The position numbers and the translations under genes are program-made. DNA of 60,996 nucleotides, the filler included, from Hausera hauseri (lineage: Eukaryota): assembly GCA_046269625.1 (NCBI GenBank). It is 12 parts of 12 records of this genome, joined end to end, with 100 filler letters (N's around TTAATTAATTAA, not from the genome) between each part and the next. Parts side by side here need not be neighbours in the genome. Positions count along the whole stretch, not along the records: positions 41,240 to 45,719 come from JBJURY010560673.1; positions 45,820 to 52,645 come from JBJURY010061884.1; 10 more parts are not named here. One strand, written 5' to 3'. The notes below the pieces were generated by a model that did no database searches, was not told the DNA's origin, and saw only the letters and a list, made by a program, of their open reading frames with translations. Below, piece by piece: positions 13,111-59,619 of the stretch (positions are counted from its first letter, which is position 1; every line of letters starts with the position of its first letter).

Positions 13111-13189
13111 TCGTTTATTGAAATTCCTGTTATACTTGGCCTAGAGGTGTTCGGCTGAGTTAAAATCGACGTATCTATTAATCTTTGTT

Positions 13190-15772: not shown

Positions 15773-15775
15773 GTT

Positions 15776-15983
15776 TGTTCAGTCCTCAGTAATTACGTTG
15801 GGAGAGACTTGAATAAATGATTAATTAATGGGGAGAACAAATTTGCTTTACTTATTTACTTATTCGTTACACGAGGGGGCTAAGGTGTCTTACCTAATTA
15901 TATAGTCAGTAATATGTAAAAGCGATACTCGTTACTTAACTTTTACTTTCTTACTGGTTAACATATTATTATTTATGATTATA
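15776..15983 (-). repeat. 5' LTR (U5 end), truncated by gap
   Basis: Ends in CA before the PBS; similar to 46857-47080 (TGTTCA.TC.TCA.TAATTAC..TGGGAGAGACTT...GGGAGAACAAAT). Confidence 0.75.
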
Positions 15984-23450: not shown

Positions 23451-24808
23451 ATGGGCATGGCGAATTACGTCGATGTAAGATTAAACATTATAATAACAAA
23501 AGGAGAGTCATTCGAGAAGAAGACGCCCTATGGATCAAGTTCAAGGGTATTCGGAATTGGTTGGAAGGGGAATGCGAGTTTTGATGCAGGAAGTGAATGG
23601 ATGGGCATGGTGTTCCAATTCAAGGGTGTTTTATACAAAAGTAAAAGAAATTCGTTATATTATATCGATACAGATCATCCATTGTTGGTGGTAGAGCGTG
23701 GTTTGTGCTCCGCACCGTGATCCGCTGGCGCAAACCACGTGAGGCATTGGTCTTTCGAAGTGTCCATGTCTGTCTCCTTGTTTTCGGAGCTTATTCCTTT
23801 CGTTTGAATGTTGAAGTAAAAGGGGTAACCTTATGTGAAATATGCAAGATGAGGAGATGCAGTGGAGTAAATAAAATGAAACATCGTGACTATTTCGCAA
23901 AGGCGACGCTAAAATCGGGAGTTACGATATCTTGCGCCGAGGGCAATAAATATTTGAAAGGGCGAGACAAAAATGTCTATGTTTCTAAAAACGTGGAGAA
24001 TAGACGTCGATTAATAGAACCAGTCGTAACGGACTGGAGAGACCAATACATCAGAAGGTCCTCGTTCGAGACGAGTGACCTCAAGAAATTAAATGGATCA
24101 CAGGAATTTAAAAGAGATTTGAAGTTTAAAACTACTGAACCTCGAGTTAAAAGGATCTGTCGAGAACCAAATACCAATGGCGTAGAATGGGAAAAGACAT
24201 TGGAGGATTGCATACTGGAAGGAAATAAGTCTCAAAAATTGCGGGAGTCGTCTGAGAAGGATGAACGAGAAGAACTCAGTCTTAAGGATTTTGTGAAAGA
24301 AACAACAAAGACAGAGAAGAGAAAATTGACGATATTTCTTGAGAAAATTTAGGGAAAAATAATTGCAATATTAATCAAAATGTCGGAGAAAGTAGAGGAA
24401 CTGAAGTCGGTTGTCGAGGAAAGAGAAGGGATCCCAACAAACCAACAACGATTAATTTACAATGGAAAACAACTAAAGGATTCTCGGAAACTTAGTGAAT
24501 ATTATATTCAAAAGGATTCACCTGTTCATTTGCAGTTGCGATTAGAAGGTGGGAGTGAATTAACTGTGGACGAACTGGAAGATAGGATATCTCAGCGTCG
24601 TAAGTACATCAACGACCTTTCAGCGATTCGGGGGAAGTTAATGGATGTAAACTTGAATGATCATGAATACGAAATGTATCATGGAAAGTATGACAAGTCG
24701 TTTACCGAGCTTCAAGGGGAGTTGAGTATATTAGCCACCTGTAAGGTTCCACCTTACAAAATATTAAATAAATATTTTTCAAAAAATTTTGTAAAAATTA
24801 ATTTCTAA
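23451..24808 (+). pseudogene. Intronless polyprotein fragment with an internal ubiquitin/NEDD8-like domain
   Basis: [75 protein letters not shown], in frame with ORF 23705-24352, plus a C-terminal extension. Confidence 0.75.
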
Positions 24809-32448: not shown

Positions 32449-33570
32449 CTACGCCAACTCCACTGACGAAATCCTCACAGCAGAGTTTCTGGTGTTTAAA
32501 GTTTCTTGTACGTCGTCTTTATAGGGCACAATTTTGTCTCCGTGGTCTTCATACATGTCTTCCATATACATCGGGTTTACCTGTCGTAATTTGAAACAGT
32601 TTCTAAATCCGTGTTCACTTTTTTCATATATCAAACATAAGTTGTTTAAAGGGCAGTTCCTTCTAATGTGTCTATGTTGTCCACAGCAAAAACAATCACC
32701 CTTAAATAGCACTTTCTCTTTAGGTGCTGGTAGATGTTTCACGCGGCAGTAGAACTTCCTGCCTTCATAATACGCAGCGTGAGTTGGAGCCCGTCTTCTT
32801 CTATCTGCGATCAAACTGCCATGTGGTTTCTGGTCCTGAGCAATGTTATTGTTCATCGACCTTGTTCCAAGCCTTTCTTTCTTTGAATATTCTATTCCAC
32901 TGTTGTGTATAAACGGTCTTCTATCATATTCTTTTGGTTTCACGTATGTTGTCTTTCCGAAATTTTGTTTGCGAGACTTTACCGCATCCCGGAATGATTT
33001 CTTCACTGGTACCACTTCTCTGAACTCTTCAACGGTTTGGCTATCTTCCAAAATGTTAGCTTCTTCCCTCATATTTTCCACCGTTGTTTTTGGTTTGAAA
33101 ACAAACCGCTCTTTTACCAATTTTGAGCTGATTCGTTTTCTTAGCACTTCTTGAACAAATTCATCTTTGTTGAACTTAAAAATTTTGTCAGTTGCTTGGC
33201 GCACTCTGATTTCAAATATCAGAAACCTTTCTCCTTCTTTCTGATACATGTTGGCCAATTCGACCACTTCATCGAGAGGGGTCACCTTTCTTGTGAACGT
33301 CGTTTTAAACCATATTATGACTTCTTCGTCCGACGGTTGGTTTCCCTTCTTTTGTTTGAAATCCGTCCACAGAACTCTGGCTTGTTCCATTAACTGGAAT
33401 TCACATAGCTCCACAAACGGCCGTCGAAAAAATTTGTTAGCATGAATCATGTCTTCCAGCCATCGTTTAGACTCATCAGTGAATGATCCATCAAATTGCC
33501 GAAGGGAGGCATTGTAGTATTTCCGGAAGTGTTCGTCATAGTTCGGAGAACTTGAATTGCCTTGACACAT
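32449..33570 (-). CDS. gag: Gag, largely open
   Basis: ATG directly after the PBS; QKEGERF capsid-like motif; tandem zinc knuckles. Confidence 0.75.
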   Translation of the reverse strand: MCQGNSSSPNYDEHFRKYYNASLRQFDGSFTDESKRWLEDMIHANKFFRRPFVELCEFQLMEQARVLWTDFKQKKGNQPSDEEVIIWFKTTFTRKVTPLDEVVELANMYQKEGERFLIFEIRVRQATDKIFKFNKDEFVQEVLRKRISSKLVKERFVFKPKTTVENMREEANILEDSQTVEEFREVVPVKKSFRDAVKSRKQNFGKTTYVKPKEYDRRPFIHNSGIEYSKKERLGTRSMNNNIAQDQKPHGSLIADRRRRAPTHAAYYEGRKFYCRVKHLPAPKEKVLFKGDCFCCGQHRHIRRNCPLNNLCLIYEKSEHGFRNCFKLRQVNPMYMEDMYEDHGDKIVPYKDDVQETLNTRNSAVRISSVELA

Positions 33571-33572
33571 TG

Positions 33573-33589
33573 TCCTGGTTGGATCGCCA
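33573..33589 (-). promoter_or_regulatory. Primer-binding site (tRNA-Arg-like)
   Basis: TGGCGATCCAACCAGGA immediately upstream of the gag ATG. Confidence 0.6.
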
Positions 33590-33779
33590 GTTAAGAACAC
33601 TTTGCTCGGCAAAGTCGGAGGATCGAAATTCTCGAGTTCAAAAGCTTTCTTTTCGCTGATAACTTAAATATAAGTCTAAAGAGTTTTAAAAGCATTTATT
33701 TTTTATCCAATATTTAAACAAATTAAAAATAAATAATAATTTGCACATTATTTATTTTTGCTGGTCCATTACTATGGAA

Positions 33780-34408
33780 TATACAATTACTATCACATCT
33801 ATCACACAAAATACAGAACCAGTAAAATTAATTTTATAATACGCAAGAAGCAATAAGACAGAAAACATAATACACACGTTCCAATAAGATTAATCATATA
33901 AAAATGTACCAATAAGATGTATCACATAAACTGCATGTACCAATAAGATGTACCATGTAACACAAAATTACGAATTACATGCTTCACATATTAGACAGTA
34001 CCAATAAAATATACTATAAAATAAACAAGGACCAATAAGATATACAAGTAGCAATAAGATGTGAAATATTAAACAAGTATCAAAAATGTAACTCTTAATA
34101 CAAAAGTACGAATAAGATGTATCACATAAAACACAGGTACCAATAAGAAGCATCACATAACATACACGTACCATTATGAAGTAACATGTAATACACAAGC
34201 ACAATAATATGCATGGCATAATAAACAAATACCAATAAGATGTATCACAAAATACACAAGTACCAATAAGATCTACCACATAATACACAAGTACCAATAA
34301 GATGTACCACATAATACACAAGTACCAATATGATGTATCACATAATACACAAGTACCAATAAGATGTATCACATAATACACAAGTACCAATAAGATGTAC
34401 CACATAAT
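33780..34408. repeat. 31-bp minisatellite (CAAGTACCAATAAGATGTATCACATAATACA)
   Basis: Near-perfect copies at 34257-34408 that degenerate leftwards. Confidence 0.92.
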
Positions 34409-37029: not shown

Positions 37030-38305
37030 TTGCGATTTATAATCTAATTCAAAACGGATGCTGGGTTGCTATGGGGAAATTTTAATTGCGAAAATTCGCT
37101 TATGGTGATTAGCGGGAATAATTGGCAATTTATTGAAATTCCTTCGGTGGTGAAACTGGAGAAAAATGGCGAATTACTGATTACTCGTCGTTCGTTGAAT
37201 TCATCGTGTAATTTGAATGATTTTAAATGGTATCCCACTGATCGGATTATGTTTACAATGTTGTTGTATGGTGCGATATTTCTGTGTACAATTGACAGTA
37301 ACCAATTGAAAATTATTGGATCTCTTAACAATGCCTTTGACTTTCGTGGGCTCCAAAAAAGAATAAATTCACTGTTGCGTTAAAAACAGAAAATCCAGAA
37401 AAACTTCATTTGAAACAATTTGAATTATTAATGACAGAAAAACAAAAAGCCTATTTGGAATGTTTCAAAAGTCATTTTAAATTCATTATTGGATTTCGCA
37501 AAATATTTGCTTGTTTTCTCGGACAAAAAACTAATAGTGTTAAGGTCCTGTTTGATATAAACAGTTCATTGGATTGTGTCAATGAAATTGGACCTAGGTT
37601 CAGGCTTTACTGCGTTCATATCATCGATTGTAATGTTGTAATCTGGATGAATAACACTGCCGAATATCTCACAATGTATCACTGCAATGAGAACAATGAA
37701 ATCATTCTAAAAATTATGTATTGTCTTCCTGTTGAATGTAATGTCATTGGGCTATTTGTTATTCCAACAAAGATCGACGGAGTCCAGATCTGGGAAAAAT
37801 TGATACCAATCGAACTATTTTTACTCAACTGAGCAACGGGGAAATTTGCGGATACTTTCTCGCTTATAGTGTACCGAACTCCGATGACTATACTAAATCA
37901 AACAAAGTAAAAATGACACTTGAGACGGGAAAACGAAATTGAATGAAAACCCTCTTCCAGAGAAAAGGCCAATTTACCATCGATTTCATCATCAAATTTG
38001 ACCCAAAAAGGAATTTTTGGCGCATTCACTTCGCCTGCATTGTCTCCGTCAACAATCAATTTATCTCCTGCTCAACAAACAAACCAATACTTTGATTTTC
38101 CAAGTAATACTTCAAAACCGTTAATCGGTAACCCTGCTTTGATATCGTTTACATCAGCAAAGCATTCTTCCGCCGTACCAAATTCTATATGTAAATCACT
38201 ATTCGATACACCGCCTCCGGCATAATTGTCTGCTTCACAACCAAACCAACTCATTGGGTTTTCAAATTCTGTCGGGAAATCAATATTCGATGCACCATCC
38301 AATTT
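37030..38305 (+). pseudogene. Non-retroviral, host-like coding sequence replacing the Gag N-terminus (beta-rich part plus Ser/Pro-rich, FG-like part)
   Basis: ORFs 37066-37383 and 37410-37832, then 37998-38300 with GIFG, SLFD, SIFD; absent from the sibling element at 29700-30159. Confidence 0.35.
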
Positions 38306-38309
38306 ATCC

Positions 38310-40625
38310 TTTGATCCATCAACAAATTTCTCTTTCGATTCATCAAATTCAAAATCTACAAGCCGAAAGTGCGACCCTACATCAAGCCATATCGACCAAC
38401 TCTAGAAAAATTGACGCTTTGTCTCTACCGCGTCGTGATGGGTTTAGCGCGGATCGAAGAAGACAGTCGTCTGCAAACTCTAGGAACGGCCAGTCATCTT
38501 CGCGACAAATGGTGTGCTATTATCACACAAAATTCAATCGAAATGCCAAAAAATGCTGCATAGGCTGCAAGTTCTATACGCATCGTTTCCAATCCCACGA
38601 TGCGGTCTGTATCTATCACAGTAAGTTTAAATGCAGTATAAAACGCTATTTACCTGGGTGTAAGTTTTACACCAAGAAACCTCTAACAACTTCTTCTTCT
38701 ATTCAAAAAAACGAATAAATCCGCCAGAAATTACGGAAACCTCTGGCAAAGGCCCTTTTGTATCACTTAATTGCCGTACCAACGCTGTTTTTCTTTTGGA
38801 TGCTGAATTCGCATCTTTCCCGCACGACACCAAATTTCTGATTGACTCGAGTGCAGCCGTCTCATTACTTCCTTCATCCTTTAACTCCTTAAAACTACTT
38901 CTCACGTCTGACAAACTTTTAATTGCCACTGGGCAAACTTTACGCATTTCTGGTACTGCAGAACTTTCTTTCACTTTAGCACATTTCTCTGAAGTCTCCG
39001 TATGGAAATTCATAGTCGCTCACATCAAAACTCCTATCTTAGCTTCTGAGTTTCTATCATATCACAATTTACTTGTCGACTGCAGACAGCACAATGTCGT
39101 GAAAAATACAATCGATAATACAAAATCACAAAATGGTACACTACTTGTCGCGCATATGGTTGCGATTCCGAATTCGATATGAAAGAAATTTGTCATCAAG
39201 CTAAATGAATTGAGTGTTGGCAATACCGATTGTGACGATTCTATTCATACAATCACTAAAAAACAACTGCTAATACAAACATGATCTCTCAGCCTGCATC
39301 CCCATCCTTACAACTAGATTCAGCTCTTCGCGATTACGTAACAACGTCTTGTGCCGGAACATTAAAGAACGATCCTACTTTTAAGCCTGCTTCTACAACG
39401 TACCATCACATTGTCACTGAACATCGAAGACCAATTAAACAGAATGCCTCTTTCTCCTCACAGACGCAAAGCGGTAGAGTTGGAATTTAACGAACTTGAA
39501 AAAACAGGAATTATAAGAAGGTCAAAATCCCCTTGAGCCTGACCATTGCACGTTGTTCCCAAGAAGGATGGCACATTCAGGCTCTGTGGCGACTACCGAC
39601 TATTAAACACCATCACGGTAATGGATGCTTATCCACTACCGCTCATTAATAACATTTTACATCTATTCCATGGCAAAATCATATTTTCATCAATCGATCT
39701 TCATAAAGCCTACCATCAGATTCTCATGGCACCAGCTGACACATCGAAAACGGCTGTAACAACACCTTTCGTCCTTTTCCAGCATGTTTTCATGCCATTT
39801 TGACTCCATAGTGCCTCAAAAACATTTCAAAGGCACATAGACACAGTGCTTGGCGGTCTAAACTTTGCGTTCCCATACATAGACGACATTCTCATCGCTT
39901 CGTCGTCTCCCAAACAGCATTCTGAGGATTTACTAATAGTCTTTCAGAGCCTTCGCCAAAGTAACCTCGAAGTGAACTTCTCTAAATGCTCCTTTTTCCA
40001 ACACAGAATCAACTTTCTTGGTCACATTATCAGCAAATCTGGCCATCTCCTCAACACGATCGCATAACTCGACTTAAAAACATTCAGCTGCCACGTACAA
40101 GAACTGAGATGCGCTCTTTTCTTGGTACACTCCACTTTGTTCATAAATACGTGTCACATTGCTCCGAATTAACCGCGCCCTTTGCATTTATATCGTCTGG
40201 AAAAAAACAGTTAATTCACTGGACGCCTGAACTTGTAAACCAATTCGACCATTTACGTGAGGGTTTAAAAACCGTTGAAATTCTGGCATGCCCCAAGCCC
40301 GACACAGAGCTGATATTAACCACAGACTCCTGTACCAGAGCAGTCGGCGCAATATTGCATCAAATTTCTAATGACGTCAACGATCCTCTGGAATTTTATT
40401 CGCGCAAACTTACACCACCGGAAAGTCGTTATTCAACTATTGACAGAGAGCTCCTAGTCATAATATTAGCTCTAAAACACTTCTCACATTTGCTAATTAT
40501 CAGATCTTTTACGATTCAAATAGACCACAAACCTCTGCTTCGCATTATGGACATGAAAGTACCTTCACCCTGACAGGAACGTCACATATCGTACTTGTCG
40601 ACATTTAATTTTAAAGTGATACATA
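38310..40625 (+). pseudogene. CsRn1-like gag C-terminus, protease, RT and RNase H; truncated before integrase
   Basis: CYYHTKFNRNAKKCCIGC, LIDSSA, RLCGDYR, YIDD, TTDS, DRELL, DHKPL. Confidence 0.9.
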
Positions 40626-41239: not shown

Positions 41240-44200
41240 ATACTTTTCTTAGCTCTTCTATCGTATTCTCCACCATAATCTTCTCAACTACTGCGTCGTC
41301 AGTTAGGCTACTTTTCAACAGTTTCAAACGCGAAATTTTCATTATTCTGGCTGCGTTAAATATTGCCTTTTTTTTGTCATCTAATGTATCTCCGCGGAGA
41401 CTCGAATAATTTACGATTCGTATTAAATTTTTCATTAACTCGCTTAGTTCTTTATTATCTGTACTAAAAGTGGGAATCGATATCTGGCTTAAGTCTCTAA
41501 TTAGTTCTCCATTATAGTCAATTTCGTCTCGGGGCTTCCTGGGTCTGCCGACTGGGCGTTTCGATTTTGGAGCATTAGCTGGCATTTCCCTTAACGGTAC
41601 TAGATTCTTGTCATATTGTTCTTTGTCTTTATCCATCTGTAAATATTCGAAATACATTTCAGCGTCTCGTACTCCCATGATTTGTCCTATGCATTGTTTC
41701 GTTTAGCTTCCGCGTGGCTTCTTCTTTTGTCTGTTCGTTGGCTATAATTACTACTATCCTATTTGTTTCGCCGGGGATGATTCCGACATCTATTAACTGT
41801 TCTAAATCTTCGAGTATTCTTCCTCTAAAGTAAAATCTGTAATTTAGCTTATTCCTTTCACCGTCGTTTAGTAACCATTCTCTTACGTCCTTTACATAGG
41901 AATAGGTAGTTAACTCACATTCCTTCTCATCCATCCATTCGGATAATATAATTACTTTTATCATTACTTCGGGTTTAGTCTTCAAGATGTCTACGTATTT
42001 TTTATAAAACGTTTCGGTACCTTGCTGTAAATTGTATTTTCGCTAGATAATTTAGTCAAAGTCGGAATAAGTTGTCTAAGATTATTTTCAATTATATTCA
42101 CATTAATTGATTCCATCAAGTCCTTCTCAGTTAACGCTGAGTCTAGGAGCATCTCTACGTTGAATTTCCTATTCTGCGGATACATTTGTATTTTATCTAG
42201 GTGTACTGGAGTTACCGGATTTTCGGCCGTTATTTCTTCTAAATAAGCGTTCCATTGTGGTTCATATCTAATATCTGGGAGTCCCTAATCTACAAGCTCT
42301 ATGTTCGTTCTTTGCACATTTTATCGAATTTCTTTTAGCCTTGGTTATATTTCTTTTATCCGCGTGGTTCGGAAACCTATTCCGTTTCCACAGGCATACT
42401 AAATTATTTTCGGTAGATCGCCTAGCTCGTTAGAAATAATGAATCCTTTTTATGATAATTGGTTAGCTCAATAATTACATCTTTTTCTCAACTTTGTACG
42501 AATTCTCGCTTATTTTTAATTTCTGATTCCAGAAAAGCATATTTGTTTCGGTAGCCTTCAAACTCTTTTGTTTGTTCGTCTAGCCTCGTTGTCTTTGATT
42601 TGTTCTGATACATGTTTCTTCAACTTGTTGTATTTTGGGAATTAATTGCCTCATTCTTTCGTCATTAATCTCTGCCATTTCTACTAGTAAATAAGCTAGC
42701 CCATACATCCCATTTATAATTTTCAAGTCGGAATCCATTGTATCCAGCAATTTCTTTACGAAATTAGATTCTTCGACAGTAAGACGTTGGTCGTTTCTTA
42801 TTCTCGTCAATTCGGTGTTATAATTCTGCTCTGTACCGGCTATCCATTCTTGTGGTTTATGCAAAAATCTTAGTGCTTCTATTAGGGCTGCTCTATGTTC
42901 TGAACAAATACCTAGGGTTTCAATATCCTGAACCGAAATCTCATCGATCGGTTTCTCGATTAAATGTTGGATTCCTTCTTGCCGGATAGTTTTTAACTTT
43001 GAGTAAAAATTACAAGTCACAATCCGTTCTTCTATAAAGTTCGTTTCTTCAATCATTTTATAGATTTCTTCCAATATTGTCATTTCTTGTTTCCTCTTCA
43101 TAAAATTTAATTGTCCTAATGATTCGAACCGTGTCCGGATGTCTATTTCTACTTATATGGTGGTTAAGTTACCTGAACCTTCTTCTAGTTGCTTTTTCAC
43201 CGATGGCTCACTTTCCGGAAATTCTTCCTTGCGGTCTTCTACTAGTTTACTTAATCTTATCATTAGTTCGGATCATTCTGACAATTGATTAGCAATTATT
43301 TACTTGGCTAATATTGCTTTGTCTTACGTTTTATAGGCGTCTTCCAATTCATCGTCTGGGCCTTTTATAAAATTCATGATTTGGCTAACATAGTTTAACT
43401 CATGCTTATATTCGTCGAATTCTATGATACAAGCTTTTATTATATATTTGGTTTCGTCGTTATTCATAAACATAATCCGATTTCTTAAACTATTGATTTG
43501 TGACCTTCTTTCATTATCCATTTTAATGCGACTCTCTAAGTCCGCACATGGTCTGTTCTCGACGAAGGCAAATTTTATCATCTTCATTAAGTTAGGAATA
43601 TCCATCGGGTCTACACCCAATATTTCTAAATCAATATCACTTCGATTGCTAACCGGTTTTTCCCTAAGGCGATTTATCATTGTATAACGTATTTCGTCCA
43701 TCTTACGTTCTAAGTTACGGGTTACTCTCTTCAACTTGGGATTAGCTTCTAAGGTAGATAGCAGTGTTTGCGCTTCAGCGACTTTTACACTAATATTATC
43801 TTCGTCTTTACTCCATCCTTCTGAAAATTCTACTCCACTTTTAATCCACGACTCTAATTCGTGGTTCCATTTTATCAACGTATCTTGTGCTACCTCTTCC
43901 GGTTGTCTTACTTCAATTGCTTCATCGAGTTTCCCTTCACTCCACAGTCTTAAACTCTTGTATAACTTCTCCGCAAATTGTTGTTCCTTACCAGATATAT
44001 CTGTTTGTTTACTAATCAGCTTGATCCTTTCCAAATTGTATCTGAGTATCTCTGGATTGTGACATTTAATTCTCATCCTCTTTAATTCGCCAGCATTTTT
44101 CCATGAACGTCGAACTTTCCATTTTTCACATCAGAATCACTATTATCGTTCATTTCTTCCTCACTGGCGGGAAACGGACAAACTTCGTTTATTTCGTCAT

Positions 44201-45719
44201 TAACATTTATCATCTTGGATGTCTGCAACACTTCTGAAATCCCTATAAGCGTAATAGAAATCTCTGAGGGCGAGTCATCTCTTAGGATAGCAGTATGGAA
44301 ATTTATTTTTTCTTCTGTATCCCTTTTAATGGGAGATCGTGAACGAGTCTTAGATTTTCTCTTAGGCGATTGGCTTCTACCTCTATTCTTTGTTATCTTG
44401 AGAACTAATGGTCCGATAAATTCACTTTAGACTCCATCCGTTATTTCGTCTGGATTATGCGTTTCTGCTTCTATTTCTGCATCTAATTTTATATTTTGAG
44501 ATGTTGATGGTTTCTCCGACTGAGCTAATCCTTGCGAAACAGACTTTTTACGTACCATATTAGTATTATTTGGAGCCAATGCCCATTCTTCTTCAGTCTG
44601 TGGTTCTCTAAATCCATGATAAACTTCCATTAATCGTAATTTCTTTTCATATTCTTTTCTAGCGTTTATGACTTGGGGATTTAGTAGTTTCACTTAGATT
44701 TCTTACCGATCTGCGTAAATCTTGCATTTCAATAATGAGGCTTATATCTTCTCGTTTATCATAGATGGCTTCTAAGTTATTTTTGATCATACTTGTTTTG
44801 TTCGGTTCGGTAAATGTGACGCTTCTGGAATTTGGAAATGACCTAGCGATGTGTCCTTCTTTTCCACACGTAAAGCATATTAAATTCCTATTCCGGCCGA
44901 TCCTTTGTCGGCCATCTTCATTTACAGGCGATTTCGCTCTGTTTGTATTCTTATTCCGATTCTGTAACATTTGTCTATTATCTCCGTCGTATCTGCTATC
45001 ATTAGTCCGATTATCCGTGTACCTATTTGGTTGATAACTACCTTGGTTCCTGTCCGAATTGTAGTTTTGTTTATTACTGTTCGAGCCATATGCATTCCGG
45101 TTATTATTAAAATTTCTGTCATTCCTTTGATTTCTATTGTGAGCATTTTGATTCCTGTTATCAAAACCTCGATTTGGGTTATTATCATTAAATCGTCTCT
45201 TATCTTGATTATCATTTCTATTTCGATTATTGCGGTCGTTATTCCTTCCATATTTGTCACCTTCTTGGACATATTTTTCTAATGCCATTTCTAGATCTTT
45301 TGTTAATTGTAATATCCTCTCAAAATTATCTGGTCTGGCCAGAATTAACTGTTTAACTAAATCTCTTGACCATATGCCATTTAGTAACTGAGTCCTCATC
45401 ATGACGTCTAAATCTGGTGGCGTTGCCTTTTCCGCGAACTCACGCTCTGCCTCTGCCTTAGCCTTAGCTACATTGGCTATCCTCAGGGCACTTACATAAC
45501 TATGAGCGAGTTCCTCTAATGCAAATGAAAATTGGGTTACCGATTCACCCTTTTGTTGCACTCTATTCTGAAATGCCATAAGCTTTTGCTGTGGCGTTAC
45601 TGTCGGCAATAATTTACGGTTTAAGGCTCCTACCAGGGAGGACCAAGATTTCTTTTCATCGTTAGTAAGCTCCCTATAAGTATCAGCAGCTAGATTCTTA
45701 AGATACAGTAATAAGCGTT
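41240..45719 (-). mobile_element. Large Gypsy-type element fragment: Gag, long helical region, UBL, AT-hook; no pol in 3.4 kb after Gag
   Basis: RVQQKGESVTQF..LEELA, Asn/Arg-rich linker, CFTCGKEGHIAR; UBL VKDVREWL..YRFYFRGRILEDLEQLIDVGI; KRPVGRPRK. Confidence 0.75.
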
Positions 45720-46519
45720 NNNNNNNNNNNNNNNNNNNNNNNNNNNNNNNNNNNNNNNNNNNNTTAATTAATTAANNNNNNNNNNNNNNNNNNNNNNNNN
45801 NNNNNNNNNNNNNNNNNNNTTTTCTGAATGGTATTCAATAAAAACTGCTGAATTTAACGAATTGTAGTGCTTCGTCGTAAAATTGTTCACAAGAAAGTAG
45901 TAATTTATCAGATTTTTTTGGCTTCCTACAGTTGCTATTTGCTTCGACTGTTGTTTGGTTTGATAAATTGAAAAAAAAAAACGTCTTCTTTCCAACCCAA
46001 TTTGATTTCATAAATTATAAAAATGTCGACTACGAAACTACACCCTCTAATATCAAATATTTAGCCAAGATTTGTAAAAGTTGCCATTCCATTTTTATTT
46101 TTATTAAGTAATAAACTTTACAATTAATTACCTGTAGTGCCGCTGGTTTAGTCACAGCCCTAGGTTTTAGACCGTTTAGGCGCCATGGCGAACCTTTGAG
46201 TCATCGAGTATCGCGAATAATCGTGGGACTTTTGCCCGTCTGCTGACGATTGTTTCATCTCAGAACCGAATAAAACCGATTGATGATCTTATACAAAGTT
46301 TTCTGGCATAATTGCACTATTGATCATGGTTGTCTAATCTGTAAATATTTCATTGGAATTGTTCATCAATTATTAATGAGCAATTGGTAATCTGAATATG
46401 ATGAATTACAAACTTGTCAAGCATGTGCAAATCGTTTAAAAAGAATTTTTCATGAAGGTAAAAACTCAGTTTGTGTAATATATTTCACGTGTAAAATAAA
46501 TACATGCGAAATAAACAGG

Positions 46520-46795
46520 TTGACAATAATAAACAGTCAAATATCGGTTGACAATTATCTATTTTCATCAAATACAAAATAAACATGTCGTTGGCACAAA
46601 AAAACAATTAATGATTATTTAATTGATGTTTTTATTTTATCGATATCTTTTCCTGCCTACGGTAATTAATTGATAATTCTTTATTTTTATGTACACAATT
46701 TTAATGACTTGTACGTTTTCCATATATCTTTTTTCAAAATCTAATATATATTAGACTCATTTTCATGAACTAACAACAAAAAATCTCGATCATGC
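46520..46795 (+). repeat. Left arm of ~280-bp inverted repeat (partner at 49720-50010)
   Basis: For example TTTTTATGTACACAATTTTAATGACTTGTACGTTTTCCA, with its exact reverse complement near 49813-49855. Confidence 0.88.
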
Positions 46796-46856
46796 TTTTA
46801 CACTGCTTAATTGTTATGATCGATGTAAGTACTTTCATTTTCTACCTTCTATCTTG

Positions 46857-47400
46857 TGTTCAATCTTCACTAATTACTTGGGAGAGACTTCTTTATAGGT
46901 GTTTAATTAATTGGGAGAACAAATGAACGTTAACTTTGTAGGCCGCGATGAGGGTGTAAATAGAGAGAGGATAGACTAACCTACATAGCTATGAGTAGGT
47001 AATATGTATGAGAGGATACTTTGATATATTAAATTATTCACTACTGTTTAGTATCCTACCTTTATTTACGATTATACGGGTGGTCGTCAGGTAGTGTTAG
47101 ACCTGGTCGACCAAAAGCCAATTTACTTGTTACTTATTTAATTAATTACTTTATTTAGAAGACTAAAAACAAAACGTTAATGGGAATTACAATAATATTT
47201 CATCCAAATAGAAAACAACGATATGAATTTTACCAACATAACCATAATCGAATAAAATACTTACACGATGACATAATAGCATATATTGTCAAAAATCAGT
47301 AACAGCTAATGTGTTTGAATCATAATGTCCTCTTTATATATTCAACCATAAACATATACAAATGTCCATATTTGGACAAAACGTCCATATTAGGACAAAA
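46857..47400 (-). repeat. LTR related to 15776-15983 (minus orientation, no PBS beside it)
   Basis: Shared U5-end sequence blocks; the right boundary is uncertain. Confidence 0.6.
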
Positions 47401-47887
47401 TCATGAACATTAATTACATGTACAGTGATAGAATTCAACAAATCGATTTTACATATAACAAATAATTTCCTTCCCATTTAAGTCAACAACAAATAACTTC
47501 ATTGCGATTTAAGTCATGTATGCAGATAGTTTCCTAACCGTTTTTGTCAACGAATAAAAATAAAATAGTCAGTAGAATAGTCAATAGAGTCGTCGCTTGA
47601 AGTACAACTTTGATTCTTTTCATAATACTTACATTTTTTGGTAATCATACCTCTCTATTAATAGTTAACTAATCTCTGAAAAACGGGGTCCGATTCAGCA
47701 TAGCGTCCCATAAGGACGTTTGTTCAAAATCATTATAAGAGGAATGCGCTAATGTGCCTCCTCGCAATCGATTTACACACTAGGATCAAATAAAATTCGG
47801 TAACCCCACAGGTTACTGCAAGCATAAATAACGTTTACGTTTGAGATCGCAAGGCCTAATCTATGTTAGAACCTTTAAACTTAACAC

Positions 47888-49720
47888 TGGTGCCCCCGAG
47901 TAAGGAGACACGCTGGCGTTGTATCATTTACGAACTAAAAGTAAAGGACAGGCTAATAATGTAATAGAAAATATGGAAACAGAAGAAAACCTTCAAATAG
48001 AAAAAAATCCCCAAATGTCCAACAGGCGCAGCTTGGGTAGTAACCTAGGTGGCACTATGATTTTGCCCATGGATAAATTCAAACGAAAACCAGATCAGGA
48101 CTACAGTGAGTTTCTGATGCAGTACCAAATGTACTCTTTTCGAATGGACAGACAAGCTGAGGATAAAACTCCTTCCACTTCATCTTGAAGGTATAGCACT
48201 TAGTGCTTATACACAAGTAATGAAGACATAAGTAAGGATGTTCTCCTAGCTCAGCTCTGTTACGGAGTAACCAGAGAAATTCAAAATTATATTATCATTG
48301 TCGATCCTAAAACCTATAAAGAAGCTGTCAGTAAAGCCAGAAAAATAGACGTTAATTACGAAAGGCTTGAAAATATGAAAAAATCTCCCAGAAATGATAA
48401 CAAGAAAGTGAAAATTTTTCAAAAGATATTCCAAAATCTGTCAGAGCAACAGCAGAAGAAGGTTACTTTTCAAAATCAACCTAAAATGTCTGCAATGAAG
48501 AAACCGATAGTCAAGCAGGATGGACAGCCATTGTGTTTCTCCTGTCAGAAATATTGATATATGACTCGTTCGTGTCCCACTCAAGGACAGTCAAGCTCAA
48601 AGAAAAATAACACTAATATAATTTGTAAATTATCTGATATGGATATTGAGCATGAAACTACAGATGGAGCCTGAACATACAATAGAAAAGCTCCAACAAA
48701 AGATTAGAGCTAAGTTAAAGAAAGTAAAACAGATGTGGTAGAAGACGACGAATATAAAGTAACTGAATTAAAGTAGTTACATTTAGAATTAAAAGAACAG
48801 CAAATTTGTAAAAAAAGACAAAATAATGAATGAAAATTCAATTATTGCACTAATAGGCAGGCCTAAAAAGAACCTGCATCAGAATCAGACACTGAAATGA
48901 AAAAGTTCGAAAGAAAAGACTGACCTTTAATACAAGAAGAGGACTTGAAGACCCCTGAGTCAGACTTACCCTCATATAGTGAAAAAAGTGATTAAACTGA
49001 CAAAATAGAGAATAAGAAAGAAAGTGAAGGAACCGCCACAACAACTAGAAACTTCACCTATATATTTGGACCAAGATGGCATCGAAATAGTACGAAAAAT
49101 ATCGAGTTACGTCAATCAATAATTAATTGATGGCACTCAATTTAAACAGGATCTCTCAATGTTACTGTCACCTACAGTAAGCCATCAACAGTTTGGAAAT
49201 TTATTGGGCCATTGCTAATATATGATGTTGACAAGAGTCCACACCAAAACTGTGTGATATATAATCTACCGCTACGCAGAAAGAGTAAGAACTATTGGAG
49301 AAAACCCTGAAGTATTATTTATTGTCCAACATAACCAAGATCGCCATGCTCTGAGAATAAAGTCGTTAGACACGATAACTGTACTAAGGCATAGGATTAA
49401 TGAAATAACCTAGGTTCGAGGAATGCTAGAATTGCAGTTGTATGGACGGACATTGTTAGATTACGAAATTATGTATGAAGTAGGAAAGTGGAAAAATAGA
49501 TATAACCCCGTGTGCATTACCTTCAAACAAACTGAACAAGAGATAATAGATGAAATTCTTACCGACGTCAGATAAAAGGATGTACAAGAAGCTGATCAAC
49601 ATCACGAAGTTCAACATACAGGAATGGAAACAAATATTCCTGTATCATAACAGATTCAAACCGACAAAAGAAATCGAGGTAGACCTAAAGGAACGACAGA
49701 AAAGCATGAGATGATGAAGG
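47888..49720 (+). mobile_element. Relative of the pol-less element: PBS, gag, UBL, AT-hook; truncated
   Basis: ...TTAACA-C-TGGTGCCCCCGAGTAAGG (elongator tRNA-Met-like PBS); LPMDKF, PLHLEGIAL, AQLCYG, CFSCQKY; LQLYGRTLLDYE..YNPVCIT; KRNRGRPKG. Confidence 0.7.
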
Positions 49721-50010
49721 TACGATCAAGAATTTTTTGTTGTTAGTTCATGAAAACAAGTCTAGTATATATATCTATATATACTAGATTTTGAAAAGAT
49801 ACGATAAAAAAATGTGGAAAACGTACAAGTCATTAAAATTGTGTACATAAAAATAAAAATAATTATCAATTAATTACCGTAGAAAAGAAAAGATATCGAT
49901 AAAATAAAAACACCAAATATATAATCATTAACTGTTTTTTATGTTTATTTTATATTTCATGAAAGTAGATAATTGCCAACCGATTTTCCACTCTTTATTA
50001 TTGTCTATTT
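49720..50010 (-). repeat. Right arm of inverted repeat
   Basis: Reverse complement of 46520-46795 with scattered substitutions and indels. Confidence 0.88.
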
Positions 50011-50929
50011 TACAAATGTAACAGTATTTCGCACTTGTTCAAGTCCTCCCAATACATTTGGGAATTTTGAACTGTGACAAAATTTTCATTCTTTTTCTCG
50101 ATTACGTAATGAGGAGATTTGAACAAGTGCGAAATATTGTCACATTTAAAAGCTTCGATTGCATTGTTTTTACTTCGTTTTCGAAATTTTTTTCATATTA
50201 TTAGTCAACATTATATTTTCCGTCTTTTGCATTATTTATTAATCAATTTTCTTCTGAGGTTGCGAAAACAAAACTTGAAGTTCTTAACGCAATATGAACG
50301 TGCAAAAATGAAATTTCAGCCGTAAAACATTACTTCTAACTTATATGAACCTATTTTCATCATATTTAACTGCTGTACATATTCTTTGCTGTGATCGTTT
50401 ATAAGCAGACATATTTTATAAAATGCCTGTTTTCTGACTCATTTTGGTGTACAAAGTTCATGAATTTTATAATTTTGTCCTATCATATATAAGAGTTTTA
50501 TACTATAAGAGTAGTTATTTGAAAAAGTTTTTAGACATTAATGTATATGTAGTTTTACGGTAGCAATACTGGATAGAAAAGTGTCGTTGCATTTTTGCAG
50601 CTTCAGACACACTTTCTACAGAGTATACTAAAAATGAAAAGCAGAAGAGAAAGAAAACTGGTTGACATGAAACAGCGGGGAAAAGAAAAAGAATGGAGAT
50701 ATTTCATAACACTGTGACGTCAATTAGACCGACTGAAAATGACGGCAAAAGCAGTAATGAATCAGCGAGCAAAACAGCTTGTGGTGTGTGCGGTAAATCA
50801 AAAGACCAAAAAAGCAAATAACAGGAAAGCCGAAGCCCATATATGTATAATGTACTAAAAGAAACCCAAAGTTCAGATTGCATCCCGTAAATGCATAAAA
50901 GGTAAAGGTTTCTGAGCTCACAGCATTGT

Positions 50930-52205
50930 TGATACAGAAGACAGAGGTTGAACTTTTTGAAGAATTCTGGGATGGAGAAATGCATGACATAGTGAGTAAG
51001 CCGAGTATGTTATATGCACGACAGCAGAACGAACATGCGTTTGAGGTAAGGAACTACCAGCCTAAGCGCATTATTGTTTTTTTTTCTATCTTCTGGGTAC
51101 CATAAACTACCCAGAGAAATGATGTATTGGGAAGTGGCGAACGACTGTAGCGTGGATATAGTGACTGAGGCCCTCAGTAGCCAGGAATACATTGACATCA
51201 AGTGCAGTCTCCATCTCGTCAGTAATGCTGAATTTCATATATGCGAGAAGTTTTACAAAGAGAGTTGTTATTTCGAGCTACTTAATAAGAGGTTTACCAA
51301 GTTTGGAGTGTTTTTGCACAACATATGTGTAGGTGAGGAAACGATACCTTACTTCCGCATACACTCCTGCAAGATGAACATGACGGGAAAACTTGTGAGG
51401 TTTGGCTTCAATTTATTGTCTTTGTTCCAGTAATGGATGCCTCTATAATTTCATTTCGTACGCTGGACGAGATGAAAGAGCTGACTACGACCTGGGACTT
51501 GGCGCTAGTGTTGTGATCAACTGTTGGATATTGACAATAAGCTAAATCGGCATGTTGTCTACTTCGACAACTTTTTCACTTCCCAGCATCTTCTCATTAA
51601 AGTCAGTAAACGAAATTTTTGAGCAACGGGGACCGTAAAAGTATATCGTCTGGCCGGCTGCACTCTTACAGACCATGAGGCACTGGCCAAGAAGGACCGT
51701 GGTTTATGTGATTTTCTCTATAATAACCTCAACAATACCATGGCTGCCAGATGGAACGACAATTAGGTGGTGACGTTAACAGTTTCACAGCGAAACCTAA
51801 TTGCTTTGTACAACATACACATGGAAGGGGTGAAAATGTTGGACAATTTTGTTTTGTTGTATCACCGTAAAAGTAAAAACTGGTGGTGGCTACTATTTAT
51901 CAACTTTATTTATGTTGCACTATGCAATACGCAGTTATTTCATCGTTTGGTACATGGTAAAGAATTGGACCTGCTGAAATTTATTTGTTGGGTTGCGATT
52001 TCGCTGCTGAAAGCAGAGCCAGTTGATAGCTGTTCAACAGTGTGCAACAGTAATCTGCTTGGTGGACCTTGGAATCTGAAGAGCATCTTTGATCCGTACT
52101 ACAGCATTGGTGAACATTACATCAAGAAGAATTTGGACAACAGACAAAGTCGATGCCATCTGTGCAAATGCATCACCCACCACATCTGTGCTGTTGGAAT
52201 TCACG
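50930..52205 (+). pseudogene. piggyBac (PGBD-type) transposase, decayed
   Basis: SGYHKLP...YW, CVGEETIPY, RFGF, VYFDNFFTS, ATGTV, RWNDN, YN.HMEGV..LD, KNWW, C-terminal Cys-rich domain. Confidence 0.9.
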
Positions 52206-53039
52206 ACGGTGGGGGAAAAAGATGAGCCTTGAACAAGGACAGGGGGTCCACCCACGCAACAATTGACTAATCAAGTAACACTTGCATGCTAATTGGTCAA
52301 TTTGACAACGACGAGTTGTATGGTGTGGTCGATTTTTGTGTCGCAAAAGACAAAGCCGGGAAATGCAAAAGAAAAAAACGACCTTTTTCCAGAAGCAAAA
52401 TTTGAGCAGGGATGTATAGGAGAAAGTGTAGAGTAGAGTACGGGCGTTCGAATGATGTGGGAAACATAGGGTTGGAGTGTTTAGGAAAAGTGGAAAAGTC
52501 GGTCAAGGAAGAGGTGGCGGAAAAGTCGGCGAAATAAATTGGGATCTCTAGCATAGAACCACCACCTTACGCATCACGGGTTACGCGTACGCGTCACGTG
52601 TGTCAAGTAACTGATGCCTAATCGATCACTTCATAAGTCTGACATNNNNNNNNNNNNNNNNNNNNNNNNNNNNNNNNNNNNNNNNNNNNTTAATTAATTA
52701 ANNNNNNNNNNNNNNNNNNNNNNNNNNNNNNNNNNNNNNNNNNNNTGAATAACGATATCTGAGATACATCGTCGATTTTTCTCAAAGGAAATATGGTGAA
52801 AATTATCAGTTCACACGGCGGAGAAACAGCAGCAGCAGTTTTGCCACCGGAAGGAGCTAAAGGCCATCTAACATTGAAGTTGAAAGGATTATGATTAATA
52901 AATTTTATTGATTTTGTTTTTCATATTGTTTCTCATCACATTAAGTTAAATATATGAATGTATATACATAAATTAAATGATAATAAAACAAGAGGCAAAA
53001 CAACGAACAATATACATTATTTATACAAAACAAACAGAT

Positions 53040-56000
53040 TGCGATGAATTGTCAAAGTAATTTGATCTGTCTGCACCGAATTCATGCGTGTGCGTTTTAT
53101 ACCAAACGCCAACGTCCGTACAGCAAACTCTTATTTCGCCCCACCCACGTACGCGTAGCATCATTGCATTATAAGGTGACTTTTGTATTGGTCACCGTAT
53201 ACAGATGGTGCTCAATCGATCGGATGATCGTTTGAGACAACAGCTCTTGATTGCCCTCCTTCATAGACACGGCGATAATCACCGTGATCTATTGAACTCC
53301 TTTGGCGTGCATTTTCGGTCCACAGTTAATTAAAAGACTAACATTTTAGGCTTAGAAATACTCATTCCCGATACTGAAGCCGACCTTCACTTTCATCGTT
53401 GAAGCAGCCGATTTGGTTTGTGATGGTATTGCTGTACAACGGATGATTCTGTGGGTATTTGGACATGTCCAGTAATCCGTCTTCCATAATTTGCTGCAGT
53501 AGTTATTTGCGATTGACATTTTCCAGTTGCAAGAAAAAACTATCTGTGACACCGACAATTATATTGATACTGCCGCCGCCGCCGCCGAACATTTGCCGGT
53601 AGCGTTCCAAATTGCGATACTGCAGCTCATACATCCGAAACTTGCTCAGGTACAATACCACTTGTCTAATGTAACTTGGCCGATCCAGAACAATATCTCT
53701 GTTTAAAAGCACGGCAACCAATCCATCGGCAATGTGCATTGACCGCCGAAACTGCGCCTTACTCGTGTACATGACCAACCGCTTTTGGCTATTGCATAGG
53801 GGTACATTGAGCCGCTTTTTCACATTCTGTACTGCTTTCCTTACAGAGAATTGTTTTTCAGCTTGTAGTAGTCCTTTTCGAACTTTGTTCAAGCTACGGC
53901 TCGTTTATCCGAATTTACATCTATGTACGCCTTGAATATGGGAGCCTGAGCAAATCGGATTGCAATATGCAGCTGTATGACACGTACACCGAGCTTTATG
54001 TAGAACTGTAGCAGACGCCAATGGACCACGTAATTCAGCTTCAGTTCATGCGTCATGAGCAGTTTCTTCACTTTTGAGCCTGGCGGACATTGGTTAAATT
54101 GTACGACCGGTATATCATCCAAAACGTCATGCAGCTCATCTGGTACTACGAAATCGACTTCATAAGGTATCCGATTGAGTTGTTTTCTGCTGTTGTCGTC
54201 TCTGTCTCGACATATTTTCCAGTATTGTGTCCAGGTCCTATTTATCGACTACCCATTCTAATGAACCGTACGGCAATGGTTGTGAAAGCGCCCAGCCGTA
54301 CAGGTTATTAATGTCGATATGCAACAGTGATGTGGTATCATCACTGGTTACGTGATACCTGTTGACAAATATCATGCCGCCACGAATACCAACATAAAAC
54401 ATTCGGTACATTTCTGGATCTTGAAATAGCTCGATATCCCGATCCAGTGACAACAGAGCTGATGCACAACTCATTTCGGGTATTGAGTAAAAGTTGTGTG
54501 GCTCCAGCCTATCTTCCGCCAACGCTTTTACTCGGAACGCCTGGAACAGATAGGCTAATAAGTACACGTCCAGTTTAAAATACTGGAGCATGTAATCCAA
54601 CATGTTTCTACAGTCGATTTCTGTCCAACACCTCTGCTTTCCGGTGTTCATTCTCTGCGATAACTGTCCATCGCGGCGGTAATTCCTATGCTGTCCAGAA
54701 TCGCTCATATGATGTTGCAAAGTCATATGGAAATATGCCTTTGCTGCGTGCAATATGTGTGGGGAACTGCGTCAGTGCTGTCGGCACATTTGGCAAGGCA
54801 TTTACCAGCTTTGCCAATGATTCATTGAGAAATTGCAATGAATCAAGGAAGCGTACCTGTAACAGGTTAATACGAGCAGACAGTGAAAAGTATTTCTCTA
54901 TCGTAGTCGGAATTATGGACAGTTCCCAGTGCGGAAATCCGTTGATGACCCATTTCAGTATATGGTGACAATTATAACCTCGAAAATTATGAAAGATCAC
55001 CGGTAGAAATGGTTTCACACGCCTTGTTAAATTGCATGCGTTGCATGTTGCTCTCAGGTATCGACGGGTGAAATGATCATGGTCCGGAACGAGCCGTTCT
55101 TGTGCGTAAAAGACAATATTTTGTGGCAGAGGTAACATTTATCGGTGGCAACCAAAAGCAGCGGTTCATATTTGTCTGTCCATATCACGGTGCGATTTCC
55201 GTTTCCACAATCGTTTCCAACTGTTACAGGAAATCGCGTATTGATGTTGTCCGGCGACTTTTATTGGAACAACTAATATACCGACGGCGATTGGAATGTG
55301 ATTTTGGTCATATACGTTGTGCCACAGTAGGATTGCCTCGATATCGGCATATACCACATATGCTGGACTGTCTCTTTTCGACCAGTCACTGAATCTCAGC
55401 TCCTTTCTGACTGGCATGACGTACATTGATGTCCTTGATGAATTTTGTCTGCACAGCGCCACATGTTTTTCCCATGTCGTTTTTGACCTGAAACCATGCA
55501 AACATGTTGGGCACCATTTACAATTTATACGCTTTTTGATGAAATGGCTATGATCCATATTCAGCAGTCTGTCCAAATTGGTTACTGCCACGTAGTGAAA
55601 TTTATTTACTTGCTTCAACAGCAACAAATTTACTGAGCGTCCATTCGGGTTCCGACTGCGATAAATTATATCCACGTGTTTTTTTTGTATCTCTTCGTCT
55701 GCTGGTATTTCTACGATTGTGTTTTACCTGAACACTGATTTCCAGTGTCGGATTACGCCGTTCAAAAGCCGGAATGGTTTCGAGTTTCATCGGCATCCAA
55801 CACCCGTCGTAGTCCAATTATGAGAAATACTTACTGTACTGCTTTGGACAATTTGCATGATGTCTGGACACTTGATCATATTTCAATATGTCCAAAATGC
55901 TGTAAATAAAGCAGTATTTGCTGTTAGTATTTTGTACATTCACTACCACCAGAGACTGCTTCAAGGACGCAGGTGTCGGCATGAATGAACGTCCGGACAG

Positions 56001-56390
56001 GTAAATCATGCCACTCGTCTTTGTCAGAATAAAGCCGAAAGTGACAATCTTTACAATTCGCCAATTACTGCTGTTTTCGGTGTAGTTTGCGATTTTTTCG
56101 TTAAGATTTTCGCCTACATCGGCAATAAAATCCTCAGAGTATCCTACGGCTCCATGTGACAGGTACCATTTTTTCCTGTCACCCTACAGATTTTCAAAAT
56201 CTGCAAATACATAATATTGCACTTTGCAGTGGTGTTGTTAGAATTTGGCCACTTCTGATTTCAACCGGTTACGCACATTAGTGCGTACATTCTTCAATTG
56301 CGTTGTTATTTTCCCCGACATGTCCACCTTCTTGTCCACGTACGATCTCTTTAGGTCGTACTTGACAGTAATGGGCGGTTCACGTTCTTA
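53040..56390 (-). pseudogene. Polinton pPolB, near full length, many frameshifts
   Basis: SFMPTP..VVNVQN..CF, HYVAV..LDRLL, YADIEA, DHDH..CN.CNL, FHNFRGY, FLDSLQF, KGIFPY, IRGG, DINNLYG, KLKNNSL, VTDS. Confidence 0.93.

Positions 56391-58989: not shown

Positions 58990-59619
<630 letters not shown>

Follow-up and report, generated by a model that had tools for sequence, protein, structure and literature searches.

The window analysed here is a stretch of 60,996 nucleotides of Hausera hauseri DNA, filler included, built as a chain of short contigs with 100-base spacers between them. Because of this construction, the three elements that concern us, E1, E2 and E3, are on separate contigs. In each of them a Ty3/gypsy Gag and a zinc knuckle are followed first by non-Pol sequence and then by a ubiquitin-like domain (UBL) with a GRP[K/R] motif after it (Table 1). 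For the sequenced parts, this confirms the original observation that three elements share an architecture of Gag, no protease, UBL and AT-hook. E1 continues beyond position 13690, which had been missed earlier, with a domain that is likely Bcl-2-like and then an envelope gene. Its order is Gag, knuckle, helical domain, UBL, GRP motif, helical domain and envelope; the envelope belongs to PF24664 (E=1e-11 to 8e-14) and breaks off with its contig around the transmembrane segment (1417-1437 in the relative P0004). The AT-rich repeat that takes the place of the rest of E3 has an inverted copy, 80% identical, at 46522-46791. The contigs of the three elements contain no 3' LTRs.

Table 1. Elements and their features, in positions of the window
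Element	Feature	Positions	Strand	Basis or remark
E1	Whole element	11374-15983	-	Own contig; stops at contig end
E1	Primer-binding-site-like motif	15757-15772	-	Just behind partial 5' LTR end; read from sequence
E1	Frameshifted Gag with Ty3/gypsy capsid and a single CCHC zinc knuckle	14810-15585	-	Pfam, P0003 mapping, profile
E1	Helical domain before UBL	14057-14275	-	Positional homologue of P0004 541-589
E1	Ubiquitin-like domain, without C-terminal GG	13782-14078	-	Pfam, BLASTP, profile against PDB
E1	AT-hook-like GRPK motif	13698-13721 (13712)	-	Motif count
E1	Likely Bcl-2-like domain, two in-frame stops read as X	13185-13655	-	Homology to P0003
E1	Chuvirus/gB-type class III envelope glycoprotein, broken	11374-13080	-	PF24664; tblastn to P0004 883-1441
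E2	Whole element	41240-45719	-	Own contig; stops at contig end
E2	Gag, Asn/Arg-rich linker, zinc knuckle	44662-45717	-	5' end lost at contig end; Pfam, shuffles
E2	Non-Pol insert, about 800 codons, no family match	42285-44661	-	Not in P0003-P0005
E2	Helical domain before UBL	41994-42284	-	Falls on P0004 511-578, 1/300 shuffles
E2	Ubiquitin-like domain, without C-terminal GG	41686-41979	-	Falls on P0005 577-655, 0/200 shuffles
E2	GRPR motif (41549) and about 100 more codons to contig end	41241-41702	-	Translation, motif count
E3	Whole element	Within 45820-52645	+	Own contig
E3	Primer-binding-site-like motif	47888-47905	+	Read from sequence
E3	Gag capsid with internal deletion, and zinc knuckle	48030-48590	+	Close relative of P0003
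E3	Ubiquitin-like domain, stops read as X	49297-49581	+	BLASTP, shuffles
E3	GRPK motif (49678)	49666-49731	+	P0003 homology stops here
	AT-rich repeat in place of remaining E3	49724-50005	+	Sequence comparison

The capsid is of Ty3/gypsy type in all three elements. A profile made from P0003, a related protein, and the E1 and E3 pieces matches the dArc2 capsid (E=2.5e-6), and E3 is 74-81% identical to P0003 in its first two capsid pieces. In E2, Pfam finds Retrotrans_gag (E=9e-4) and zf-CCHC (E=5e-4). None of 300 shuffles reaches the score of the E2 Gag against P0003, P0004 or P0005, compared with 5 to 271 of 300 for three other Gags of the window.

Natural ORFs allow the elements to be read beyond their contigs. 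P0003 has 1,130 amino acids and carries Gag, knuckle, helical domain, UBL, GRP motif, helical domain and envelope (PF24664) in one frame. It covers all of E1 and the Gag-to-GRP part of E3; it ends inside the envelope, on a contig of 4,786 bases, and has no Pol. Its residues 380-800 retrieved P0003 alone from 6,497 candidates of near length, and the viral contigs searched held no relatives. P0004 and P0005 were found through the P0003 envelope region (37-38% identity, E=1e-68). They have the capsid in common with P0003 (E=1e-22 to 1e-24), and the stretch with the helical domain and UBL (P0003 355-522, P0004 484-653) matches with E=1e-6. Their order is Gag, knuckle, helical domain with UBL, envelope, protease, protease, RT, RNase H and integrase. 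By Pfam, the intact relatives have the envelope at residues 869-1490, RVP at 1916-2011 and RT at 2234-2391, then RNase H and integrase. All 20 full-length relatives (3.7 kaa), which form two clusters and are not 20 independent cases, have Gag, helical domain with UBL and envelope first, and protease, RT, RNase H and integrase after it. Three protease motifs lie downstream of the envelope start in each of the 20, the first two directly after the envelope.

Protein homology without any DNA-level similarity among E1, E2 and E3, the presence of diverged copies, and intact natural ORFs with the same domain order as the window elements bear out the earlier view that the lineage is old and diversified and did not arise by one deletion. 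The reads of one run (X1), searched for E1 and E2, contain many diverged copies of each. It also holds that the two visible primer-site-like motifs are different: the TGG-initiated motifs at 15772 (-) and 47888 (+) differ, and would putatively correspond to tRNA-His for E1 and to a Met-like tRNA for E3. The window has no tRNA gene with which they could be matched.

What has become of the protease? The coding-strand frames of E2 and E3 are free of D[ST]G motifs, the two such motifs of E1 are both inside the envelope region, and no piece of the three elements has a Pfam match to a protease. An HSV/gB envelope follows gag with no pol between them in E1 and P0003, and in E3 by way of P0003 only. 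In elements of the described kind the envelope stands between the capsid and the enzyme genes, and hence the "missing" protease is likely further downstream. The block of protease, RT, RNase H and integrase is seen after the envelope in P0004 and P0005; P0003 and the copies in the window stop short of it. Judging from these sequences, the protease was likely moved behind the envelope gene in the source elements, and not lost.

Our confident reading of E1, E2 and E3 is that they are truncated and decayed remnants with a Ty3/gypsy Gag and a UBL, and that they likely stem from errantiviruses of the planarian Burro type, with GAG-ENV-POL in a single frame. For E1 and E3 we have hardly any doubt; for E2, on a contig without env or pol, this is probable. 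Speaking against this reading, the intact relatives are just 37-38% identical in the envelope, and Pol is not seen on E1, E2, E3 or P0003. The latter fact, together with the many diverged copies in X1, would also suit a different origin, in which E1 and/or E2 represent non-autonomous families with an envelope but no pol, dependent on the Pol of an autonomous GAG-ENV-POL partner. However, E1, E2 and P0003 end at or near contig ends, before the position of Pol in the relatives, and E3 is overwritten by another repeat, so such an origin seems quite improbable. There is the same slim chance that the E1 and E2 families are high-copy satellites of this kind with their own capsid, UBL/AT-hook/Bcl-2 cargo and fusogen, in which the GRP motif would tether Gag to AT-rich chromatin and the partner would supply protease, RT and integrase.

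The UBL is the other common feature. Its single-sequence Pfam matches are weak (0.027-0.045 for E1, 0.011-0.089 for E2) or lacking (E3), and a profile of the three sequences finds ubiquilin UBLs as its best PDB matches (E=5e-4). The multiple alignment is made of the three copies in the window, and P0003-P0005 entered the comparison as entire proteins, either in pairs or against the profile. The three UBL segments were expected to align. E1 and E3 do so (BLASTP E=4e-14, 30% over 144 aa), but E1 and E2 are not significant by BLASTP and hhalign and become so when hand-cut domains are shuffled (0/1000; 24/1000 for E3 and E2). In the 3.7-kaa proteins the profile has its best matches at P0005 573-650 (E=0.0022) and P0004 608-669 (E=0.005), with a low hhalign probability of 7-13%. 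The E1 UBL alone is not above chance against P0004 and P0005 (97/200 and 75/200 shuffles reach its score), and it found no relatives among 1,289 longer candidates.

It had been suggested that the UBL replaces the viral protease: the lineage would have none, and a host deubiquitinase would cut behind the UBL to process Gag. The sequenced parts do lack a protease motif, and the UBL is kept across diverged elements. However, the UBL ends in di-glycine in none of the three elements, which makes such cleavage unlikely; the domain of the ubiquitin-family ORF at 24353 in the window, by contrast, does end in GG. None of the 20 full-length relatives has a GG before the envelope, and the only one in P0003 is at 746, far from the UBL. 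The hydrophobic patch of ubiquitin is centred on Ile44; where the window's ubiquitin-family ORF has the corresponding Ile, the aligned residue is N in E1, Q in E3 and Y in E2. These UBLs have neither the di-glycine nor the Ile44 patch of a type I cleavable ubiquitin-like modifier. Intact relatives with the same helical and UBL module keep their three aspartic-protease motifs. Host cleavage in place of a protease is already largely refuted, and we give it next to no credence. The relatives show that the helical and UBL module before the envelope is an old feature common to the lineage.

E2 deserves separate consideration, as it could be an unrelated gypsy lineage that gained its UBL and GRP motif independently. 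This would accord with the E1/E2 comparison by BLASTP and hhalign, with an 800-codon insert and a post-GRP region that match nothing in P0003-P0005, and with a contig on which there is no env. Part of the insert (42583-43152) looked SAM-like by eye, and no Pfam or PDB match was found for it; an ESM Atlas search with an insert piece gave no relatives, nor did a search of JGI metagenomes with the last ORF. On the other side, the E2 Gag, pre-UBL helical domain and UBL fall at matching places, in order, in P0004 and P0005, and the window ubiquitin, used as a control, does not fall on their UBL region. The helical domain of E2 is not significant against P0003 or P0005 by shuffling; that of E1 has its score reached by 1/300 shuffles against P0004, 12/300 against P0005 and 15/300 against P0003. 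An independent origin of E2 is unlikely, and we keep it with the other two.

Several described systems can be compared, as far as the available parts of the papers go. Burro, or GYPSM1, comprises giant Ty3/gypsy elements of Schmidtea mediterranea and Dugesia, with a Ubi2/SUMO-like domain before BCL-2 and an env in frame between BCL2 and PR (PMC6431247). The elements here resemble it in the CCHC-knuckle Gag, the accessory domains, among them a Ubi2/SUMO-like and a likely BCL-2-like one, the env in frame between gag and pol, with the protease after it in P0004 and P0005, the very many copies, and the decaying fragments in related species. Of the Burro order, the UBL is found here, the Bcl-2 match is weak, env is in frame in P0003, and PR is present only in relatives without a Bcl-2 match. 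Unlike Burro (ORF of about 4,900-5,100 aa; >30 kb; MATH, BIR, ankyrin and Smc cargo), E1, E3 and P0003 are compact: env follows about 800 aa after the start of Gag, there is a single knuckle, and Pfam finds no MATH, BIR or ankyrin domain. Since E1 and P0003 reach env in about 800 codons and lack the giant size and cargo, we file the elements as Burro-like, not as Burro. E2, unlike compact E1 and P0003, has a long insert without an assigned domain. The GRP motif between UBL and Bcl-2 also differs from Burro as covered in the available text of that review, where "AT-hook" does not occur; and the Burro env was likened there to gypsy Env and mononegaviral fusion proteins, whereas here it is PF24664, of gB type.

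Flatworm errantiviruses have only HSV/gB envelopes, arranged GAG-ENV-POL (PMC13524379). Those of Platyhelminthes, Nematoda and Bryozoa, such as Smed_errantivirus_1-6, share with the present elements a Ty3/gypsy Gag and a gB/chuvirus-like envelope directly after gag, with pol last as in P0004 and P0005. The Smed_errantivirus_1 envelope in the supplement has, by eye only, motif after motif in common with P0003 and E1. The published elements are intact copies, while those here are decayed fragments, and the available main text has no ubiquitin, AT-hook, Bcl or Burro. Smed_1-4, from their spans of 14.5-14.9 kb, would be of Burro type. Anakin also combines an LTR retroelement with a chuvirus glycoprotein (PMC7642597); its backbone is BEL/Pao, whereas the capsid here is Ty3/gypsy (dArc2-like) and env comes before pol. 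Little here is new: more families, diverged and compact, are added to a GAG-ENV-POL/Burro-like layout that is already in print. Annotators should be warned that such elements seem protease-less in short contigs, only because Pol is 2 kb or more downstream.

How might such an element work? One polyprotein would be made. If the hydrophobic segment just before the envelope (784-802 in P0003, which passes the hydropathy threshold, while P0004 and P0005 do not) is an internal signal sequence, the signal peptidase of the host would release the Gag-UBL(-Bcl-2) portion on the cytoplasmic side. A transmembrane helix would hold the envelope in the membrane. Pol would emerge on the cytoplasmic side of this helix and be cut there, as would Gag, by the aspartic proteases that the element itself encodes. 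The UBL may be an integral, non-conjugatable interaction domain of the ubiquilin/RAD23 type and not a cleavage site, and the Bcl-2-like domain would likely modulate host-cell death.

The Bcl-2-like assignment of E1 13185-13655 and its P0003 counterpart is likely, though a weak call. P0003 651-748 matches positions 6-100 of the 100 of Pfam Bcl-2 (E=0.055). Foldseek with the model of this region gave no matches at E<=0.001, and 18 of the 46 matches listed were of the Bcl-2 family, a weak enrichment; this model and the other predicted structure are of low confidence (pLDDT 42.6 and 37.5, respectively). Bcl-2 was absent from the best 50 matches of a wide VIA search and from phmmer against PDB, and ESM Atlas gave no relatives of the region. 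The intact relatives have no Pfam Bcl-2 or ubiquitin match and no GRP motif.

GRP[K/R] occurs seven times in 119,522 six-frame residues of the window, four of them in these elements (13712, 41549, 48856 and 49678). The motif has the GRP core and basic flanks of an AT-hook, and Pfam AT_hook has no match in the window elements or P0003. In our literature search no AT-hook was found in such elements (Grohme 2018, Jurka 2007, Sacco 2022, Repbase entries and figure supplements may mention one), and it is the sole detail for which the search found no published precedent. The motif had been proposed as a chromatin tether in an AT-rich genome. E1, E2, E3 and P0003 have it; all 20 full-length relatives lack it, so it is not essential to the lineage. 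It is likely an optional basic patch for DNA or RNA binding or nuclear targeting. The distribution shows that the GRP motif, and apparently also the Bcl-2-like domain, come and go within the lineage.

Three divergent elements, E1, E2 and E3, were confirmed to share a layout in which Gag and its zinc knuckle are followed by non-Pol sequence, a ubiquitin-like domain (UBL) and an AT-hook-like GRP[K/R] motif, with no protease among them. They lie on non-continuous DNA, short contigs strung together with 100-base spacers. The capsid is of the Ty3/gypsy type; its profile matches dArc2 (E=2.5e-6) and Pfam agrees. The coding-strand frames of E2 and E3 hold no D[ST]G protease motif, and the two found in E1 are both within an envelope region. 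GRP[K/R] occurs seven times in the 119,522 six-frame residues of the window, and four of the seven are inside E1, E2 or E3. Two primer-site motifs are visible and unlike each other. At the DNA level blastn finds no similarity among the three elements.

Features of the window, by position
Feature	Position	Strand	Observation
Broken ORF	209-1251	+	by eye, presumably protein-primed family-B DNA polymerase of Polinton-type elements
Broken ORF	2186-2728		presumably as above, by eye
E1 contig	11374-15983	-	broken by stops and frameshifts
Primer-site motif	15772		tRNA assumed to be His
ORF pieces	18861-20171	-	195, 136 and 72 aa; signal-peptide-like hydrophobic stretch at end; no convincing Pfam match
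Ubiquitin-family ORF	24353-24805	+	Pfam E=1e-19; after its GG runs on in frame for ~85 residues without family assignment
Ty3/gypsy remnant	26400-29770	-	RT/RNase H matches; by eye, protease-like region directly behind Gag
Ty3/gypsy remnant	30737-33663	-	same
Tandem array	33815-34407		unit of ~31 bases
Ty3/gypsy remnant	38143-40573	+	same as other remnants
E2 contig	41240-45719	-	broken by stops and frameshifts
Part of E2 insert	42583-43152	-	SAM-domain-like by eye; rejected, no Pfam or PDB support
E3 (contig 45820-52645)	47888-49731	+	broken by stops and frameshifts
Primer-site motif	47888		tRNA assumed to be Met-like
Second GRPKK of E3	48856	+	upstream of UBL; also at P0003 residue 307
Broken ORF	53503-56183	-	presumably as first ORF, by eye
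Ubiquitin C-terminal hydrolase fragment	59011-59313	+	Pfam UCH E=5e-8; we take it to be USP7-like, by eye

Beyond 13690, in sequence that the original prediction missed, E1 continues after its GRP motif with a helical domain and then a chuvirus/gB-type envelope (PF24664 on three pieces, E=9e-12, 8e-14 and 1e-13) that extends to the contig end. Searched against 1.84 billion representatives, the UBL-to-helical part of E1 has a single match (E=2e-51). This is P0003, a natural ORF of 1,130 aa from a contig of 4,786 bases; Gag, knuckle, UBL, GRP motif, Bcl-2 match and envelope follow each other in its one frame. P0003 aligns across all of E1 and across the Gag-to-GRP part of E3 (identity 74-81% in the first capsid pieces), past which E3 has an AT-rich repeat in place of P0003 homology.

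Where, then, is the protease? Among 972 longer candidate proteins, the P0003 envelope region matches two, P0004 (3,771 aa) and P0005 (3,761 aa), at E=1e-68. By Pfam, both run from envelope (869-1490) through aspartic protease, RT, RNase H and integrase to another protease; two aspartic-protease motifs follow env and one follows integrase. They share the P0003 capsid (E=1e-22 and 1e-24), and P0004 also its helical and UBL stretch (E=1e-6). The window's UBL profile is best placed at 573-650 of P0005 and 608-669 of P0004 (E=0.002 and 0.005, with a probability of only 13% and 7%). The E1 envelope corresponds to P0004 883-1441, and the cut in E1 falls at the P0004 transmembrane helix (1417-1437), some 240 residues upstream of the first protease motif. 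That these particular families are instead pol-less satellites seems to us very improbable. The P0004 and P0005 clusters have 28 members, 22 of them listed and 20 of these full length. In every one of the 20, three protease motifs lie downstream of where the envelope begins, GG is absent ahead of that point and GRP is absent throughout; they represent two clusters and do not amount to 20 independent observations.

The UBL had been proposed to replace the viral protease as a cleavage site for host deubiquitinases. This is unsupported because the UBLs of E1, E2 and E3 lack a C-terminal GG and the relatives retain proteases. The window's own ubiquitin-family ORF does have this GG. The patch isoleucine of that ORF is matched by N, Q or Y in the three UBLs; the roles of the residues compared, this one included, are our assumption. 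Single-sequence Pfam UBL matches are weak for E1 and E2 (E 0.011-0.089) and absent for E3, while matches of the three-sequence profile are dominated by ubiquitin-family structures, with ubiquilin UBLs at the top (E=5e-4). The UBL-to-GRP segments of E1 and E3 align (E=4e-14); that of E2 does not with BLASTP or hhalign. With hand-cut UBL domains the score was reached by 0/1000 shuffles for E1/E2 and 24/1000 for E3/E2; for the ubiquitin-family ORF as control it was reached by 33/1000 against E1, 964/1000 against E3 and 212/1000 against E2.

E2 probably belongs to this lineage too, as an expanded member; its contig shows neither env nor pol. Its Gag outscores 300/300 shuffles against each of P0003, P0004 and P0005, a test that three other Gags of the window fail. 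Its helical domain ahead of the UBL aligns to P0004 511-578 (1/300 shuffles) and not significantly to P0003 or P0005. The UBL is placed at P0005 577-655 (0/200 shuffles), P0003 492-540 (2/200) and P0004 609-674 (24/200). Its 800-codon insert and post-GRP region had no match in the searches made. The tabulated Ty3/gypsy remnants are of the ordinary kind, and their Gags do not match the UBL lineage.

E1 and E2 are clearly large, diverged repeat families along their full length, depth not being copy number. In one sequencing run, possibly the source sample and hence not independent, 13,027 contigs map onto E1 and 11,178 onto E2, covering 30/30 bins in both; 10,972 and 8,717 are less than 95% alike. 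A second run gives the same pattern at a lower level (1,479 and 914).

The observation is real and its explanation is already known. In the sections of PMC6431247 describing Burro/GYPSM1 of planarians, Gag has CCHC knuckles, a Ubi2/SUMO-like domain precedes BCL-2, and env lies in frame between BCL2 and PR. PMC13524379 gives errantiviruses of Platyhelminthes, Nematoda and Bryozoa only an HSV/gB env, in the order GAG-ENV-POL, and catalogues nine flatworm elements; in its supplement, the envelope row of Smed_errantivirus_1 looks, by eye, similar to P0003 and E1 in one motif after another. A word search of the available text of both papers, and literature-search listings, gave no AT-hook in such elements. 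E1, E2 and E3 are likely new, decayed members of these GAG-ENV-POL, Burro-like errantiviruses.

Burro has BCL-2 described at the same position as the Bcl-2-like domain here, for whose identity the evidence is weak and mixed. The P0003 match spans Pfam positions 6-100 of 100 at E=0.055. Foldseek, with a query model of pLDDT 43, has the Bcl-2 family in 18 of the 46 matches listed, BOK at the top and none at E<=0.001. A wide structural search has it in none of the best 50, and phmmer against PDB gives no Bcl-2-like match.

Several suggestions can be made about how such elements might work. A single polyprotein would be produced. In P0003 a hydrophobic stretch (784-802) lies directly ahead of the envelope start at 810, and may act as an internal signal sequence at which signal peptidase would free the Gag-side part; an equivalent is below threshold in P0004 and P0005. 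The transmembrane helix would anchor the envelope, with Pol on the cytoplasmic side, where proteases of the element itself would cut it. The UBL would be an interaction domain that is not cleaved. The GRP motif would be a dispensable patch for binding nucleic acid or for nuclear targeting, and the Bcl-2-like domain would probably modulate the death of host cells. Past the third protease motif, P0004 and P0005 have hydrophobic segments and then a C-terminal transmembrane helix, possibly another surface protein encoded in frame.
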